From Candidatus Schekmanbacteria bacterium (lineage in GTDB: Bacteria > SZUA-182), in NCBI GenBank assembly GCA_016235675.1, contig JACRJN010000131.1, forward strand, positions 1,779-65,778: a stretch of 64,000 bases of DNA, written 5' to 3'. How positions within the stretch are numbered: the stretch's first letter is position 1; each line of letters begins with the position of its first letter. The notes below the pieces were generated by a model. It had not been told where the DNA came from. It saw nothing but the letters and a program-made list of their open reading frames with translations, and did no database searches. The translations under genes and the position numbers were made by a program. Below are positions 8,183 to 62,660 of this stretch, one piece after another.

Positions 8183-8250
8183 AATAATTTTACACTAAAC
8201 AGTCATGCTCCTTCAGAACGACACAAAACATGAAAACATTCCCCCCTGCC

Positions 8251-8310
8251 GTAGTGCCGGGGCTTTAGCCCCGGTAGTTCAGCCCTGAAGGGCTGGAACT
8301 ACGAAACTAC
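8251..8310. repeat. R-B type hairpins (GTAGTGCCGGGGCTTTAGCCCCGG; GTAGTTCAGCCCTGAAGGGCTGGAACTAC)
   Basis: Read directly. Ends with a tandem GAAACTAC. Confidence 0.85.
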
Positions 8311-21575: not shown

Positions 21576-21592
21576 AGGGGCGAAAATTCTAT

Positions 21593-21815
21593 TAAGACGT
21601 AGCGCAGGGCTTTAGCCCCAATACTGTTCCCCTAACGTAGCGCAGACCTTTAGGTCTGCTCCGGAGTGCTCACAAAGCCACCCCATAAGCAGGGATAGAA
21701 GCCCTGCGCTACGTCTTAAGTGAACGGTATTGGCTTTAGCCCTGCTTCCGGACACACATCAAACCCGGTAGCCGGTAGCAGACCTAAAGGTCTGCACTAC
21801 GTTAGGGGAACAGTA
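21593..21815. repeat. R-A element whose first hairpin is interrupted by a second R-A element
   Basis: GTAG at 21599. The host hairpin GCAGG GCTTTAGCCC TGC is split. The right end is GCAGACCTAAAGGTCTGCACTAC (to 21800) plus GTTAGGGGAACAG. Confidence 0.85.
21619..21732. mobile_element. 114-nt R-A MITE-like element (TIR CAATACTGTTC.../...GAACGGTATTG) with a 10-bp target duplication
   Basis: GCTTTAGCCC at 21609..21618 and 21733..21742. Removing the element plus one duplicate restores the canonical hairpin GCAGGGCTTTAGCCCTGC. Confidence 0.8.
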
Positions 21816-21826
21816 AAGGGGCGGCT

Positions 21827-26971: not shown

Positions 26972-27031
26972 GTAGTCCCAGCCCTTCAGGGCTGATCTTC
27001 CAGGGCTAAAGCCCTGGCACTACGGCTACGG
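26972..27031. repeat. R-B doublet: GTAGTCCCAGCCCTTCAGGGCTG ... CCAGGGCTAAAGCCCTGGCACTAC(GGCTACGG)
   Basis: Lies between two 47-nt direct copies of the gene junction (26899..26945 and 27052..27098). Confidence 0.9.
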
Positions 27032-27085
27032 CAGGAATGTTTGGTGGTATCCTGCCTAACCCCGAATTTATGGCCACTATCGTGC

Positions 27086-42602: not shown

Positions 42603-42620
42603 TTTTTTTCATCACCAGCC

Positions 42621-42686
42621 GTAGTCCCAGCCCTTTAGGGCTGAATTTCCGGGGCTAAAGCCCCGGCACTACGGCTACGGCTACGG
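42621..42686. repeat. R-B doublet plus tandem CTACGG x3
   Basis: GTAGTCCCAGCCCTTTAGGGCTG...CCGGGGCTAAAGCCCCGGCACTACGGCTACGGCTACGG. Confidence 0.9.
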
Positions 42687-42705
42687 CTGACAATCGCCTG
42701 TACCG

Positions 42706-51372: not shown

Positions 51373-51686
51373 TTACCACGAAGGCCACAAAGCACACGAA
51401 GAAAAAATTTCGAGAGTGTTCACCTAAAGATAGATATTTATATATTTAAAAACGTAGTCCCGTGGCTTTAGCCGCGTATTTTCAGCCCCTTAGGGCTGCA
51501 AAAAAAGGTGTGTTCGTATGGAACGCGCCGAAAGTATTGAGAGTCATAATTGCAGGGCTAACGCCCTGAAGTTCAGCCCTGAAGGGCTGGGACTACGATA
51601 TTACTGGGACTACGATATTATATTGATGTTTTGGCCAATCCCCAGGCCGAAAAATTTCTTCGTGCTCTTCGTGTGCTTCGTGGTTG
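51373..51686. repeat. R-F composite: CACGAAG arms enclosing four R-B-type hairpins
   Basis: CCACGAAGGCCACAAAGCACACGAAGAA ... GTAGTCCCGTGGCTTTAGCCGCG, CAGCCCCTTAGGGCTG, GCAGGGCTAACGCCCTGA, CAGCCCTGAAGGGCTGGGACTAC ... TTCTTCGTGCTCTTCGTGTGCTTCGTGG. Confidence 0.88.
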
Positions 51687-55320: not shown

Positions 55321-55382
55321 CAATGGACAATTGACAGTTTTTCGTTATCCATTATCCACTATCCACTATCCACTATCCATTG
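55308..55382. repeat. GGACAATTGACAAT x2 and CCACTAT heptamer x3 tracts
   Basis: CAATGGACAATTGACAATGGACAATTGACAG overlaps the stop of 53998..55320. Followed by CCATTATCCACTATCCACTATCCACTATCCATTG. Confidence 0.85.
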
Positions 55383-55399
55383 AATTAACAACAATATTT

Positions 55400-57136
55400 A
55401 TGTCCATAAACAAACCTAAAAATTGGGATTTTTACCCCCCGAATCCCGAATTGCAAAAGAAACTCCAATCGGAATTAGGGATAAAATCCCGATTGGCCGA
55501 TCTGATGATCAACCGCGGCATCGAAACCGTCGCCGACGCCGGGATTTTTTTATGGGGGACTTTAGCGGAATTACACAGCCCATTTATCATGAAAGGGATG
55601 ACCACCGCCGCCGGAATCATTCTTAACGCCGTCCGGCAAAAAGATAAAATCTGTGTTTACGGGGATTACGACGTCGATGGATTAACCGGTGTGGCTTTGC
55701 TGTTCAAAACCCTGAGTTCGCTCCAGGCCGACGTGATCTTTTACATCCCCCACCGGCTGGAAGAAGGTTACAGCCTGAATTGTCAGGCGCTGGACGAGAT
55801 CAAAAACGCCTCCGTCAATTTAATCGTAACCGTGGACTGCGGCATCACCTCCTGCAACGAAGTCAATTACGCCAATAAATTGGGGATGCAGGTAATTATC
55901 AGCGACCATCATCAATTGGGAAATAATCTGCCTGCCGCCGCGGCCATTCTCAATCCCTTACAACCCGGATGTCCCTATCCTTTTAAAAAACTGTCCGGCG
56001 TAGGTATTGCCTTGAAATTAGCGCAGGCCATATTGGCGCAATCCGGTTTAATCCGCGAGGCGGCTGATCTTTTAAATAATGATTTGGACCTGGTAGCCCT
56101 GGGAACAATAGCCGATATGGTACCTTTAATGGGGGAAAACAGGATTTTAGTAAAATATGGTCTTAAACAATTGACAAATTCCTCCAAATCAGGTATAAAA
56201 GCATTAAAGCAGGTTACAGGTCTGGCTATTGACCAGGAAGTTAGCGTAGTAGACGTAGCATATAAGCTAGCCCCCCGGTTAAATGCCACCGGCAGAATGA
56301 GCGACCCTCAGCAGGGGTTGGAACTGCTGGTATCCAATAACGACACTGAAAGCGCTAATCTGGCTAAGCAAATAGAAGAAAACAATGTTCAGCGCAAAGC
56401 TATCGAAGGGATAATCCTGGAACAAGCCAGGACGCAATTGCAGCAAGCTATCGAGAACAACGCTCCGCCAAAAGCGATTATTTTAGCGGCCGAGGGCTGG
56501 CATATCGGCGTAATCGGAATCGTCGCCTCCCGCATAGTGGAAGAGTATTTCCGCCCGACGATCATTATCGGGCTTACATCGGGTGTCGGCAAAGGTTCAG
56601 GCCGAAGTATCCGTAACTTGCACCTGCAGCAAGTTTTATTGAAATGTCAGGATTTACTGCTGGAGTTCGGCGGCCATGAAATGGCGGCGGGCTTGAGTAT
56701 TCTGGAAGAAAATATACCCCGGTTCAAAGAGCGCATCAATCAACTGGTGGAAGATTCTTTACAGGAAAACGACTTTATACCCAGCTATAATCTGGACGGC
56801 GTGGTGGAATTAAAAGAGCTGACCTTGTCGTTTTGGCAGGAAATACAATTAATGGAGCCGTTCGGCATAGGCAATCCGGCGCCGTTATATTGTGCACGCC
56901 ATTTAGAAATAATGCCGCCGCTGCGCTTAGTGGGCAATAACCATTTAAAATTGAAGCTCAGGCAAAACGACCTGACTATGGAAGCCATCGGTTTTAATAT
57001 GGGAGATTGGCTCTCATTTTTAAATACTCCGGGCAATAAATCGATAGATGTGATTTTCCGCCCCCAGTTGAATGTCTGGCAAGGCAAAGAGCAATTGCAA
57101 TTGTCCCTGCAGGACATAGTGCAGACCAGGGATTAA
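55400..57136 (+). CDS. recJ: Single-stranded-DNA-specific exonuclease RecJ
   Basis: VYGDYDVDGLTG, TVDCGI and ISDHH (DHH) motifs, and GGHEMAAG (DHHA1). ATG at 55400. Confidence 0.93.
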   Translation: MSINKPKNWDFYPPNPELQKKLQSELGIKSRLADLMINRGIETVADAGIFLWGTLAELHSPFIMKGMTTAAGIILNAVRQKDKICVYGDYDVDGLTGVALLFKTLSSLQADVIFYIPHRLEEGYSLNCQALDEIKNASVNLIVTVDCGITSCNEVNYANKLGMQVIISDHHQLGNNLPAAAAILNPLQPGCPYPFKKLSGVGIALKLAQAILAQSGLIREAADLLNNDLDLVALGTIADMVPLMGENRILVKYGLKQLTNSSKSGIKALKQVTGLAIDQEVSVVDVAYKLAPRLNATGRMSDPQQGLELLVSNNDTESANLAKQIEENNVQRKAIEGIILEQARTQLQQAIENNAPPKAIILAAEGWHIGVIGIVASRIVEEYFRPTIIIGLTSGVGKGSGRSIRNLHLQQVLLKCQDLLLEFGGHEMAAGLSILEENIPRFKERINQLVEDSLQENDFIPSYNLDGVVELKELTLSFWQEIQLMEPFGIGNPAPLYCARHLEIMPPLRLVGNNHLKLKLRQNDLTMEAIGFNMGDWLSFLNTPGNKSIDVIFRPQLNVWQGKEQLQLSLQDIVQTRD

Positions 57137-57138
57137 GG

Positions 57139-57265
57139 TTCACTTAAGACGTAGCGCAGGGCTTTAGCCCTGCTTATGGCGGCTTTGGTAGGCACTCCGG
57201 AGCAGACCTAAAGGTCTGCTCTACGTTAAGTGAACAGTCTGCGCTACGTTAAGTGAACAGTATTG
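57139..57265. mobile_element. R-A MITE-like element at the recJ/cytochrome junction (left TIR lacks its first 8 nt; right end partly duplicated)
   Basis: TTCACTTAAGACGTAGCGCAGGGCTTTAGCCCTGC...GCAGACCTAAAGGTCTGCTCTACGTTAAGTGAACAGT CTGCGCTACGTTAAGTGAACAGTATTG. Flanked by GGATTAAGG at 57130..57138 and 57266..57274. Confidence 0.75.
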
Positions 57266-57288
57266 GGATTAAGGAGGGGTTTGGGGGA

Positions 57289-58773
57289 GTGTTAAAAAAG
57301 CAATTATTTTTTAGATTGTCGCTGGTTGTCGTTTTGGGATTTTATTTTATATGGCCGAATATCTTTTCCTGGGCGCAGGAAGAACCTGCTGCGATAAAAA
57401 CAGACAAACCGGAATTTGTGGAACCGGGTATGAATCCCAATGAGAACATACCCACTATCGATCAATTTGTTGTCCCGTCGGATCTGGCGCCTGCCGTAAA
57501 GGATATGGCGCCGCAAAAAAAAGAATCCGAAGCGGGTAAAAAGATAGAATCCGAAGCGCCGACATTACCCTCCGGCCTTCTCCCGGACAAAACACCGGCA
57601 GCCGCTCCTGTGGCACCGGAGATGCAGCCTACTTTAACGGACTGGAATAAAGAAAATTTACTGAAATCATATAGCGATTTTATGAAAATGATGTCTCCGA
57701 AACGGGATGGGATCAAATTGGAAGCGCAAACAACGGAAGCACAAGATAATCCGATTTGGAAATTTCATAGCTGGCTGCAAGACCAACTGGCAATTATGGA
57801 ACAAACCGGCGGAGAAACCGCCGGCGGCAAAGGCGGCCTGGAAGAACTGTGTTTTGTTTGCCATAACGGTAAATTGGTAGTCAACCCTAACTTCTCCGGC
57901 GATTATACCAGTATCAAGGATGTTTTTCAACTCACCAGCCGCCATCCGGTAAGAGCTGCCGATAAATCCAATTTCTACGATCCGCTGAATCCGGATGACC
58001 CGACCAAATCAGACCCGACCTGGGAACGCAAACTACAATGTACTACCTGCCATAATCCGGCGGTAGTTACCGGAAAAACCAAGGACGGCGGTTATCCCTT
58101 AACCCTGCCTACCGATCCCGAAGTCACCTGGACGCAAAAATTAATCGACGGCTGGCCTACTTTGGATAATCCACCCTGGCCTCATGACACCCCGCCCCGT
58201 CCGATAGTCTACGGGCGCCCCTATGCGGATGATCCCAATCCCGATGTGCCGGGGGACGAAAAATTGGGCCCCGATGCCACGGAATTACCTAATTTTACCT
58301 CCTATTGTCAAACCTGCCACCGGCAAATTTCCGGACGTTACGGCGTGAGCAATAACTATTCCCGCTTAAAATACGATCCGATCCGCTATATCAAGGGAGA
58401 TGGCGGCGGCAATGTTTCAACCCATGGTTTAGCGCGCGGCAGGGAAAGCAATACCCCACATTTAAAATTAAGAGAACCATTCTACTCTTTAAGATGCGAC
58501 GCAGAGGGAAATGTAGTTAACAATCTTTATCTGGCCTGCGTCGATTGCCATGAACCTCATGGCTCTTCCAATGCTTTTTTATTAAGAACGAAGGTAAACG
58601 GTGTAGCGGGTGTAAAAGCCGGGTATGACGGTAAATTTTTTACTTTATGTTCTAAATGTCACATTGTCGCCAATCCCTGGCCGGGCGGGTATCCGCACGG
58701 GTCTCCGGGGGATATGGCGGAAAGATCATGTATCCAGTGCCATAACCATTCATCAGGGGGGGGGCGTTTCTAA
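57289..58773 (+). CDS. Secreted or membrane-anchored hexahaem c-type cytochrome
   Basis: GTG start after AAGGAGGGG. Hydrophobic N-terminus. Six CxxCH motifs: CFVCH, CTTCH, CQTCH, CVDCH(EPHGS), CSKCH, CIQCH. About 190 aa Pro/Glu/Ala/Lys-rich linker before the haem domain. Confidence 0.85.
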   Translation: MLKKQLFFRLSLVVVLGFYFIWPNIFSWAQEEPAAIKTDKPEFVEPGMNPNENIPTIDQFVVPSDLAPAVKDMAPQKKESEAGKKIESEAPTLPSGLLPDKTPAAAPVAPEMQPTLTDWNKENLLKSYSDFMKMMSPKRDGIKLEAQTTEAQDNPIWKFHSWLQDQLAIMEQTGGETAGGKGGLEELCFVCHNGKLVVNPNFSGDYTSIKDVFQLTSRHPVRAADKSNFYDPLNPDDPTKSDPTWERKLQCTTCHNPAVVTGKTKDGGYPLTLPTDPEVTWTQKLIDGWPTLDNPPWPHDTPPRPIVYGRPYADDPNPDVPGDEKLGPDATELPNFTSYCQTCHRQISGRYGVSNNYSRLKYDPIRYIKGDGGGNVSTHGLARGRESNTPHLKLREPFYSLRCDAEGNVVNNLYLACVDCHEPHGSSNAFLLRTKVNGVAGVKAGYDGKFFTLCSKCHIVANPWPGGYPHGSPGDMAERSCIQCHNHSSGGGRF

Positions 58774-59774: not shown

Positions 59775-59829
59775 CAGGACAGGCGTCCCGCCGGAAATTA
59801 TAAAATATTGTAGGGGCGGGGGTTTCCCC

Positions 59830-59966
59830 CAATGCTGTTGACTTAAGACGTAGCGCAGGGCTTTAGCCCTGCTTAAGACGCGGCATTTGACCCCTGTGGC
59901 TGTAGCAGACCTAAAGGTCTGCGCTACATAAACATCAAAACAAAATTCCTTAAGTCAACAGCATTG
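59830..59966. mobile_element. 137-nt R-A MITE-like element (TIR CAATGCTGTTGACTTAAGACGTAGCGCAG / ...CTTAAGTCAACAGCATTG) inserted in the loop of a GTAG hairpin
   Basis: 11-bp direct duplication GGGGTTTCCCC at 59819..59829 and 59967..59977. The host hairpin GTAGGGGCGGGGG TTT CCCCGCCC spans 59810..59981. Confidence 0.8.
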
Positions 59967-59996
59967 GGGGTTTCCCCGCCCTTTAATTAACTTAAG

Positions 59997-60057
59997 CCGT
60001 AGCCGTAGTGCCAGGGCTTTAGCCCTGGAAATTCAGCCCTAAAGGGCTTTAGACTAC
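59997..60057. repeat. R-B doublet with tandem CCGTAG x2
   Basis: CCGTAGCCGTAGTGCCAGGGCTTTAGCCCTGG...CAGCCCTAAAGGGCTTTAGACTAC. Confidence 0.9.
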
Positions 60058-60069
60058 GAAATTTAAGAG

Positions 60070-60410
60070 CTTATCCGTAAATAACCGTTACCTTTGGTTT
60101 CCCCCTTTAGCAAAGGGGGATTAAGGGGGATTTGCAAATTGTAATTTCCATAAAGAATTTGGCAGCGTTCTCAATCAGAGACCCAAAGCGTCATTGCGAG
60201 GCAGCCTTATCGCCGAAGCAATCTCATCCACACGCATGGAGATTGCTTCGCTTCGCTCGCAATGACACTTCGGAGTCTCCCTATTTCTACGCTACCAAGA
60301 ATTTAATCTTTTAACAATATGTCGTGTTCGAATAATTCTTAAGGTTAGATTCAATTTGAAAATCTCCCCAACCCCTCTTTGCCAAAGAGGGAAAAGTTAT
60401 TTACGGATAT
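60070..60410. repeat. R-I element (CTTATCCGTAAATAAC arms, CCCCCTTTAGCAAAGGGGG / CCCTCTTTGCCAAAGAGGG hairpins) interrupted by an R-C long-form copy at 60159..60298
   Basis: An uninterrupted R-I relative lies at about 31540..31660. The R-C copy runs TTGGCAGCGTTCTCAAT...CTACGCTACCAA. Confidence 0.8.
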
Positions 60411-60521: not shown

Positions 60522-61490
60522 ATGAAAATAATCTTTTGTGGCACGCCGGAATTTGCCCTCCCCAGCTTAAATACCCTACTGACGTCCAAACATCAGGTTT
60601 TGGCGGTGATTACCCCACCCGATCGCCCCGCAGGCCGGGGTAAAAAGCTCAAACCCTCTGCAATTAAGGAAGCCGCCTCAACTCATAATTTACCCATCTT
60701 GCAGCCGGGAAAAATCGGATCGGCGGATTCGCTGGAAAGCATGCGGCAATTGAATCCCGACGCCTTGGCAGTTGTCGCCTTCGGACAACTTCTCCCCCCC
60801 CCGGTACTGAATTTACCCCGCTACGGATGCATCAATGTCCATGCCTCCCTGCTTCCCAAATACCGGGGAGCGGCTCCCATCAATTGGGCGATCATCCGGG
60901 GGGAAACCCAAACCGGGGTCTGCACCATGCGGCTGGATAAAGGGATGGACACCGGCGATGTTATCTTATGCAAGGCTGTCGATATTAGGTCGGAGGAAAC
61001 CGCCGGAACATTACACGACAAGCTGGCCCCGCTGGGCGCGCAATTATTAGCGGAAACATTGGATCAGATCGAAGCGAATACCGCGCTTTATCATCCTCAA
61101 GACCATAACTCGGCCACCTATGCGCCGCTCTTGGATAAATCGATTACCATCATCGACTGGAAACAAAGCGCCGAACAAATCGACTGCCTGGTGCGCGGGT
61201 TAAATCCCTATCCCGGAGCAAAAACATTTTTGGACGATCTGCCGCTGAAAATTCTTACGGTGGAAATCAGCAAGCTAGCTAGCCCGGCCCTACCGGGACA
61301 AATAATTCAGCAAAATCGACGGCAGGGAATTTTAGTCGCGACAGGCAGCGCTCCCATTTGGCTGAAAACAATTCAGCCGGCCAACCGCCAGCCTATGACC
61401 AGTGGCGATTTTCTTTCCGGATTGCGTGAGTCTTTAATAAATAAGGAATTCCGTAGTCCCAGCCCTTTAGGGCTGAATCTCCAGGGCTAA
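60522..61490 (+). CDS. fmt: Methionyl-tRNA formyltransferase
   Basis: 322 aa. MKIIFCGTPEFA, INVHASLLPKYRGAAPI (SLLP) motif. The last ~12 codons and the stop lie inside an R-B doublet. Confidence 0.93.
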   Translation: MKIIFCGTPEFALPSLNTLLTSKHQVLAVITPPDRPAGRGKKLKPSAIKEAASTHNLPILQPGKIGSADSLESMRQLNPDALAVVAFGQLLPPPVLNLPRYGCINVHASLLPKYRGAAPINWAIIRGETQTGVCTMRLDKGMDTGDVILCKAVDIRSEETAGTLHDKLAPLGAQLLAETLDQIEANTALYHPQDHNSATYAPLLDKSITIIDWKQSAEQIDCLVRGLNPYPGAKTFLDDLPLKILTVEISKLASPALPGQIIQQNRRQGILVATGSAPIWLKTIQPANRQPMTSGDFLSGLRESLINKEFRSPSPLGLNLQG

Positions 61491-61504
61491 AGCCCTGGCA
61501 CTAC
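61453..61504. repeat. R-B doublet overlapping the fmt 3' end
   Basis: GTAGTCCCAGCCCTTTAGGGCTG AATCT CCAGGGCTAAAGCCCTGGCACTAC. The fmt stop TAA is in the second loop. Confidence 0.9.
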
Positions 61505-61555
61505 GACTGACAATGGACAACGAATTCATTATCCATTCAATAATGGAGAGCCCTC

Positions 61556-62168: not shown

Positions 62169-62222
62169 GTAGTCTAAAGCCCTTTAGGGCTGAACCTCCA
62201 GGGCTAAAGCCCCGGCACTATG
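62169..62222. repeat. R-B doublet (right anchor degenerate: CACTAT)
   Basis: GTAGTCTAAAGCCCTTTAGGGCTG AACCT CCAGGGCTAAAGCCCCGGCACTAT. Confidence 0.85.
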
Positions 62223-62292
62223 GTAGGGGAAATTTTGAAACACTCAAAAATATATACAAACCGACAATATTATGCTATACTTTAAAAATTAT

Positions 62293-62660
62293 GGGGGCGA
62301 CTGGTTTCGACGGGGCTATTGAACCTCCAACTGCATGTCGAGCATTCTACTGACTCGTAAATCCGGTGGAAAAACAATAAACGCAAACTACTATGGCGAA
62401 AGCCAATTAGCTTTAGCCGCCTAATTAGTGCGGCTTCGTCCACCCTGCTTCGCTGATGGAGCGGGATGTGGGCGGCATATACATCAGATAGCGGATCCGC
62501 TTCGCCTAAGGGCGGACGAGCGAAACTACACTTTGGCTGGCCTTTCTTTGATCCTGCCGCCGGGAGCGGAAAGAGGCGAGAAACAATCCAGCGGCTAAAC
62601 ATGTAGAAGTTGCCGGCAAGGTACTCTCGGACGCGGGTTCGATTCCCGCCGCCTCCACCA
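62293..62660 (+). ncRNA. ssrA: tmRNA (SsrA)
   Basis: 5' GGGGGCGACTGGTTTCGACGGGG. 3' GGACGCGGGTTCGATTCCCGCCGCCTCCACCA. Acceptor stem pairs GGGGGCG with CGCCTCC and includes G3:U. Candidate tag ORF GCA AAC TAC TAT GGC GAA AGC CAA TTA GCT TTA GCC GCC TAA at 62383..62424 (ANYYGESQLALAA). Confidence 0.95.

Follow-up and report, generated by a model that had tools for sequence, protein, structure and literature searches.

The gap between recJ, which encodes a single-stranded-DNA exonuclease, and the multihaem cytochrome gene downstream of it in a Candidatus Schekmanbacteria genome very probably results from a transposition event. In the stretch of 64 000 nucleotides analysed here (contig JACRJN010000131.1, positions 1779 to 65 778; hereafter the window), a non-autonomous MITE (miniature inverted-repeat transposable element) with IS4-type ends would have been inserted, by a DDE transposase supplied in trans, into the junction formed by the recJ stop codon and the ribosome-binding site (RBS) of the cytochrome gene. 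Judged from its termini and from its relatives, it derives from insertion sequences (ISs) that belong to the IS4 subgroup within the IS4 family; between its ends it carries a pair of repetitive extragenic palindromes (REPs).

The recJ–cytochrome junction and its element

The decamer GGGATTAAGG is located at 57129-57138 and again at 57265-57274. The original prediction had reported the nonamer GGATTAAGG at 57130-57138 and 57266-57274; both positions are correct, and adding the preceding G extends the identity to 10 bp. The order in the window is ..GTGCAGACCAG GGATTAAGG TTCACTTAAGACGTAGCGCAGGGCTTTAGCCCTGC..GCAGACCTAAAGGTCTGCTCTACGTTAAGTGAACAGTCTGCGCTACGTTAAGTGAACAGTATTG GGATTAAGGA GGGGTTTGGGGGAGTG.., where the left copy of the target-site duplication is GGATTAAGG (57130-57138, + strand) and the right one GGATTAAGGA (57266-57275, + strand), the tenth base of the left copy having probably been lost along with the tip of the element. 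As had been claimed, the left copy holds the stop codon of recJ (open reading frame (ORF) 55331..57136, + strand, start codon uncertain; TAA at 57134-57136). The recJ product is 100% identical to an NCBI RecJ from a Candidatus Schekmanbacteria metagenome-assembled genome (MAG) and has the domains DHH, DHHA1 and RecJ_OB. The right copy supplies, again as predicted, the first bases of GGAGG (57273-57277, + strand), located 11 nt upstream of GTG 57289 and likely to be the Shine-Dalgarno sequence of the cytochrome gene (57289..58773, + strand; GTG start, signal-peptide-like N-terminus). The public gene call has an identical 494-aa product starting at GTG 57289, with an N-terminus that can be aligned with that of an ortholog (locus L015, see below). 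This GTG is the true start, and a program-made ORF beginning at 57253, within the element, is an artefact. The intergenic gap is 152 nt with the element and ∼16 nt without it.

The segment between the repeat copies is 126-127 bp long and without coding capacity. Its left end begins at TTCACTTAAG, without the outermost CAATACTG. When the three other window copies are aligned with it, TTCACTTAAGAC (57139-57150, + strand) emerges as what remains of the left terminal inverted repeat, and GGATTAAGG now runs straight into TTCAC. The loss amounts to 9 nt (A plus CAATACTG), or to 8 nt, as first described, if the duplication is counted as 9 bp. Motif searches revealed two REP units further in. Unit 1 (57151-57173, + strand) consists of a GTAG tag and a hairpin, GTAGCG CAGGGC TTTA GCCCTG C, and its hairpin motif has 22 matches in the window versus 0.07 expected (both strands, up to two mismatches, related variants included). 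Unit 2 is inverted (GCAGACC TAAA GGTCTGC TCTAC; 57202-57224, - strand) and its motif gives 12 matches, i.e. both strands of six sites, versus 0 expected. Paired changes in the stem (GG..CC versus AC..GT) distinguish unit 2 from unit 1, and the two together form a head-to-head heterodimer.

The right terminal inverted repeat TTAAGTGAACAGTATTG (57249-57265, + strand) was described as intact and partly duplicated, and so it is. The same 17-22 nt terminus is found on an IS from Syntrophorhabdales and on other MITEs, and the inner right end holds a 23-bp tandem duplication (57216-57261, + strand; 57216-57238 and 57239-57261, 22/23 identical) that is an insertion relative to the other window copies in the alignment. 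We also considered that this duplication might be a second nested insertion and dropped the idea, because no element ends lie between the two ACGTTAAGTG copies. If the 8-nt tip is restored and one 23-bp duplicate removed, the element measures 111 bp, compared with 112 and 114 bp for two sister copies. Its RNA has a fold of -65 kcal/mol (z = -3.3), and the element, if co-transcribed, would be predicted to form a strong hairpin. No promoter-like or terminator-like site was found within it. The sole Rfam match in the window, away from the element, is a tmRNA gene (RF00023, 195 bits) at 62293-62660, directly after a REP dimer.

The orthologous junction was examined in relatives. The nearest other RecJ sequences are 60% (L015) and 57% identical. 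L015 has the same succession of genes as the window (RnfC-like gene, recJ, cytochrome gene, sigma-54 activator), and the gene after recJ encodes a cytochrome that is 67% identical over its full length. The recJ–cytochrome gap of L015 is only 11 bp and contains no element (..GGT AGT TGA AGGAG ATC GTG TTG AAA AAA..), with AGGAG directly 3′ of the recJ stop, at the place that corresponds to GGAGG in the window; in L017 the gap is 24 bp, also without an element. Removal of 57139-57274 from the window leaves ..AGG GAT TAA GGAGG GGTTTGGGGGA GTG TTA AAA AAG.., so that the predicted single-copy (empty) junction reads ..GGATTAAGGAGGGG.. / ..CAGACCAGGGATTAAGGAGGGGTTTGG... This excised sequence aligns collinearly with L015 through the junction; the two recJ genes stop at one and the same codon position, and their products have C-termini of equal length. 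The claim that in-silico removal would yield a tight stop/RBS junction thus has a natural counterpart in L015, and the comparison supports an insertion in the lineage of the window. As the stop codon occupies the same position in an element-free relative, it is native to recJ and not a contribution of the element.

An IS4-subgroup family, its targets and its sister copies

In the IS4 subgroup the ends follow -AATR--------WTW---- and the direct repeats measure 10-13 bp (PMC2266710 Table 1). The ends of the element, CAATRCTGTTCACTTAA, agree with this published consensus: CAATACTGTTCACTTAA has the required base at every specified position (2-5 = AATA, 14-16 = TTA), and this is true of the right end of the recJ copy and of both ends of the three sister copies. 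An origin from the IS231 subgroup, to which the MIC231-type cassettes belong, was considered first and rejected because it needs ends of the form CAT-------AA--TAA---, and the terminus begins with CAA and has CA at positions 11-12 (PMC2266710).

The terminus was then searched for in one genome per species, with a second scan in IMG/VR. In a Syntrophorhabdales MAG (JBEKJU01; L001-L013) nine contigs end 90-120 nt inside one IS end, which is the signature of an unassembled multi-copy IS; the assembly is fragmented by an IS4-subgroup element. At its right end the window element matches the last 22 nt of this IS without a difference, and two of the contigs (L003/L001) rejoin across the IS with a 10-bp duplication, CCCCTAAAGC. 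A Deltaproteobacteria MAG contains three MITEs of ∼150 bp with perfect 10-bp duplications (GGGTTAGGGG, GATTTAGGGG and GCCCTAACCC), and IMG/VR provided further MITEs with duplications of 11 and 12 bp. One IMG/VR locus, L035, contains a complete IS of 1430 bp that ends in CAATGCTGATCAGTTAA...TTAAGTGAACAGCATTG and is flanked by a duplication of 12 bp. The IS has an ORF of 445 aa with matches to Pfam Nterm_IS4 (7e-27) and DDE_Tnp_1 (6e-22) and NCBIfam transpos_IS4_1 NF033592 (9e-82), and the transposase is 99.6% identical to plasmid proteins annotated as ‘IS4-like element ISAeme15 family transposase’. The right terminal repeat of this IS includes the stop codon of the transposase gene (6260-6281 of L035; CTT AAG TGA within TTAAGTGAACAG). 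A Terriglobia match (L012) is a copy of 352 bp that has no coding sequence and is flanked by a duplication identical at 9/10 positions; a Pseudomonas match (L010) has no adjoining IS and was set aside as due to chance or unrelated.

In intact members of the family the duplications are perfect and measure 10 bp (L004, L007, L008, the L003/L001 pair and window position 21619), 11 bp (the L021 group and window position 59830) or 12 bp (L032 and L035); the recJ copy has 9-10 bp. They are centred on Y-T-A-R. The two loop insertions at 21619 and 59830, invoked in the original prediction, are real, with duplications of 10 and 11 bp; the size of 9-10 bp suggested there has to be replaced by a family range of 10-12 bp. 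A target logo was built from the ten bases that directly follow the ..CAGYATTG terminus in 19 independent flanks. All 19 have C or T at position 4, T at position 5 and A or G at position 7; A occupies position 6 in 17/19, and positions 8 and 9 are mostly G. The right-hand copy GGATTAAGGA conforms to the resulting pattern, nnnYTARGnn, and the sites of the Syntrophorhabdales IS include GGCTTAAGGG, TGCTTAAGGC, GACTTAAGGT and CGTTTAAGGT. Since a TAA stop codon fused to GGAGG matches the preferred core TTAAGG, the site would have been chosen through this Y-T-A-R preference. GC-rich hairpin loops are also used, at 21619 (a REP loop) and 59830 (a terminator-like loop) of the window and in L021 and L035. 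The 59830 site, GGGGTTTCCCC, is without a TA core, hence the preference is not absolute.

IS4-family transposases (Tn5, Tn10, IS231) move DNA by cut-and-paste and make staggered target cuts about one helical turn apart (PMC2266710). Applied to the recJ–cytochrome junction, this suggests the following scenario. The ancestral 10-bp target GGATTAAGGA would have comprised the end of recJ (..GAT TAA) and the start of the cytochrome RBS, TAAGGAGG. A transposase acting in trans would have cut the two strands ∼10 bp apart, and gap repair would have duplicated the target, such that the left copy kept the ..GAT TAA stop and the right copy kept TAAGGA+GG as Shine-Dalgarno sequence. Neither gene would have been damaged, the gap merely growing from ∼16 to 152 nt. 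Decay would have come later, with the loss of 8-9 nt from the left tip and the gain of the 23-bp tandem duplication at the right end. The deletion starts exactly at the boundary between element and flank, as expected from imprecise repair after a one-sided transposase cut, which may have been its cause. With its left tip missing, the copy should now be immobile. The trans-acting transposase in the source organism, the order of the decay events and the neutrality for expression are inferred.

In all, the window contains four copies of the element, 112-137 bp long, non-coding and with a mean column identity of 76%. The sister copies share one layout. CAATRCTGTTCACTTAA(GA)C forms the outer inverted repeat and is followed by the GTAG-tagged hairpin GTAGCGCAGGGCTTTAGCCCTGC, ∼30 nt of spacer, an inverted hairpin GCAGACCTAAAGGTCTGCGCTAC and the outer repeat again. 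The first (16000-16111, 112 bp) has an old 10-bp duplication, GATCTAATCA / AATTTAATCA, that is 8/10 identical. The second (21619-21732, 114 bp) is flanked by two identical 10-bp copies of GCTTTAGCCC and is nested in the loop of the first REP hairpin of an older decayed copy (about 21592-21825), whose outer ends are degraded (right: ..GGGGAACAGTAAAG). The third (59830-59966, 137 bp), with its 11-bp duplication, splits a GC-rich terminator-like hairpin, GGGGCGGGGG TTT CCCCGCCC (59813-59985), that follows the sigma-54 activator gene at a distance of ∼40 bp; two insertions of the same MITE family are therefore present in the recJ-cytochrome-activator cluster.

The REP component also occurs by itself. 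A bare GTAG-REP dimer without IS4-type ends lies at about 16888-16950, in frame inside the leucyl-tRNA synthetase ORF (16335..18923, minus strand), in a linker ∼39 residues longer than in the E. coli enzyme; intragenic REPs are known in other species (PMC3733652). That the dimer is found without the outer repeats indicates that the latter are a separate module. The exact 23-nt hairpin GCAGACCTAAAGGTCTGC[AGT]CTAC is present in at least 120 metagenome contigs of 35-70% G+C, mostly paired with GTAG[CT]GCAGGCCTTCAGGCCTGC, a spread unusually wide for one REP sequence; the outer IS4-type terminus is found on none of the 128 hairpin matches listed. No paper with the hairpin sequences came up in a literature search. 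The window has, in addition, a second family of GTAG-REP dimers with different stems, GTAGTGCC(A/G)GGGCTTTAGCCC(T/C)GG ... CAGCCCT(A/G)AAGGGCTGGGACTAC, at about 8249-8307, 26975-27035, 42620-42690, 51550-51620, 59990-60065, 61455-61510 and 62170-62225.

Evidence against the insertion and competing explanations

Several observations weigh against the insertion of an IS4-type MITE at the recJ–cytochrome junction. The left copy of the duplication adjoins no recognisable terminus, and a deletion exactly at the boundary must be assumed; the right copy abuts an intact terminus, at the point where duplications start in every intact family member. The relatives available for the junction are distant, with RecJ sequences 57-60% identical, and at no more than 60% identity the literal predicted single-copy sequence cannot be expected to show. 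At the orthologous junction that was to be checked, L015 is tight and element-free; the single-copy sequence itself was not seen in these distant relatives. The predicted empty site ACCAGGGATTAAGGAGGGGTTTG had no exact match among the JGI metagenome contigs scanned. A look-up of the identical cytochrome protein led to the sole other public contig of the locus, a 1.7-kb Logan contig that breaks inside the element and represents the same allele. Finally, tblastn with an ISAeme15-like transposase against the window and all the loci detected no full-length IS or IS4 transposase in the 64-kb window; a full-length IS with matching ends that encodes an IS4 transposase was seen in other organisms only. 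In favour of a repeat element having doubled the stop/RBS junction, as originally proposed, are the intact right terminus, the fit of the target and the element-free tight junction in a relative.

The least improbable of the competing explanations holds that what moved is the REP dimer in the interior (a REPIN), through the action of a tyrosine transposase associated with REPs (RAYT), and that neither the GGATTAAGG repeat nor the outer inverted repeats had a part in the event. The core is indeed a typical GTAG-tagged head-to-head REP heterodimer, GTAGCGCAGGGCTTTAGCCCTGC ... GCAGACCTAAAGGTCTGCTCTAC, by the definition in PMC3733652, which asks for a GTAG tetranucleotide beside an imperfect palindrome and for units paired in opposite orientation. 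Both the bare dimer inside the leucyl-tRNA synthetase ORF and the wide occurrence of the 23-nt hairpin, with no IS4-type terminus among the matches listed, speak for a dimer that exists on its own. However, every intact copy has its duplications of 10-12 bp beyond the IS4-type inverted repeats, and the right GGATTAAGG copy adjoins the IS4-type terminus and not a REP. Transposition of the Y1/HUH type is not known to make target duplications. A crude motif scan of the window, moreover, found no RAYT-like ORF. We regard this explanation as quite improbable: because the duplications are outside the IS4-type ends, the composite should not be filed as a REPIN, even though its cargo is one.

It may also be supposed that there was no deletion of the left tip, and that GATTAAGG (57131-57138) is a diverged left terminus. 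The element would then supply the recJ stop codon, and the identity of the flanks would be coincidental. A search allowing four mismatches and the aligner both placed the terminus there, GATTAAGG and CAATACTG being identical at 4/8 positions. But 4/8 is near random, whereas a 10/10 match to the right flank would arise by chance with a probability of ∼1e-6. The stop codon is at the same position in the element-free ortholog, where the sequence can be aligned up to the stop, and the flanks would have just 2 bp in common, unlike those of every other copy. A diverged terminus thus deserves very little credence.

Least credible of all is a match of the two GGATTAAGG copies by chance or as a common motif of the genome. 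The nonamer is slightly enriched (4 occurrences in 64 kb versus 1.1 expected, two of the four being the flanking pair), and a third copy of GGGATTAAGG exists at 60117-60126. But the repeat sits exactly at both edges of an element from a known repeat family: when a 126-bp interval is moved across the window, only one of its 63 400 placements, the present case, has a 10-mer repeat abutting both boundaries (13/63 400 with 3 nt of slack). The duplicated sequence agrees with the target logo of the family, and the third copy belongs to an unrelated repeat. Pure chance is excluded by this position together with the fit to the target logo. The third copy (region 60090-60135) is part of a motif, CCCCCTTTAGCAAAGGGGGATTAAGGGGGATTT, and a similar GGGGGATTA-type sequence flanks the MITE in L007.

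Relation to known systems and significance

With ISs of the IS4 subgroup (IS4, ISAeme15) the element shares the ends -AATR--------WTW---- and duplications within the 10-13 bp of their direct repeats, and for some members strong conservation in the target arms was reported (PMC2266710). It differs from these ISs by its size (112-137 bp), by the presence of REP hairpins instead of a transposase gene and by its host, a member of an uncultivated phylum; in addition, the recJ–cytochrome copy has a damaged left end. Like bacterial MITEs such as RUP, Correia/NEMIS, ERIC, Nezha and Bcr1, it is short, non-coding, multicopy and gene-adjacent, with terminal inverted repeats, but its parent transposase family and duplication length are different. 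Bacterial MITEs fold into strong hairpins on transcription (background in PMC3733652).

The closest parallel to its inner structure was provided by Di Nocera et al. 2013 (PMC3733652), who described GTAG-tagged REP dimers within longer palindromes, GTAG-15 of Anabaena variabilis and CGTC-1 of Halothiobacillus neapolitanus. There too one finds a head-to-head REP heterodimer with the GTAG tags outside, and a longer enclosing inverted repeat that is not found without REPs. In contrast to these cases, an IS family can be named for the enclosing repeat of the window element, and target duplications of 10-12 bp go with it; no link between the enclosing palindromes and a DDE transposase was made in PMC3733652. 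The IS-family ends and the 10-12 bp duplications point to a DDE transposase as the agent that moves the composite unit. ISs that target REP sequences were reported by Tobes and Pareja 2006 (PMC1525189), and the sister copies at 21619, in a REP hairpin loop, and at 59830, in a terminator-like loop, are reminiscent of them. The recJ–cytochrome copy, however, is not in a palindrome, and its target matches just the central TTAAGG preference.

A bolder and rather doubtful possibility, which we put forward tentatively, is that the element is a hybrid of two mobile-DNA systems, in which a GTAG-REP heterodimer placed between IS4-type ends is spread by a DDE transposase, with a target preference that covers REP loops, terminator loops and TAA-GGAGG junctions alike and permits a harmless colonisation of tight operon junctions. 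If this is true, a REP heterodimer that normally relies on a tyrosine transposase would here be spread by a DDE transposase, and, the 10-bp duplication restoring both signals, tight operon junctions could be colonised without harm.

Much of this has been described before: MITEs, target duplications, the traits of the IS4 subgroup, ISs that hit REPs (PMC1525189), palindrome-enclosed REP dimers and REPs in ORFs (PMC3733652). What is new is the report of this MITE family from an uncultivated phylum and the assignment of a REP-dimer palindrome to a specific transposase family. The event is of an ordinary and well-understood kind and does not challenge current understanding. It matters mainly for annotation, the recJ–cytochrome gap being very probably a transposon scar and not a regulatory region. 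It also offers a clear example of how a target duplication of one helical turn preserves two overlapping signals, a stop codon and a Shine-Dalgarno sequence, and it ties REP dimers in longer palindromes, noted earlier without a mechanism, to a named transposase family.

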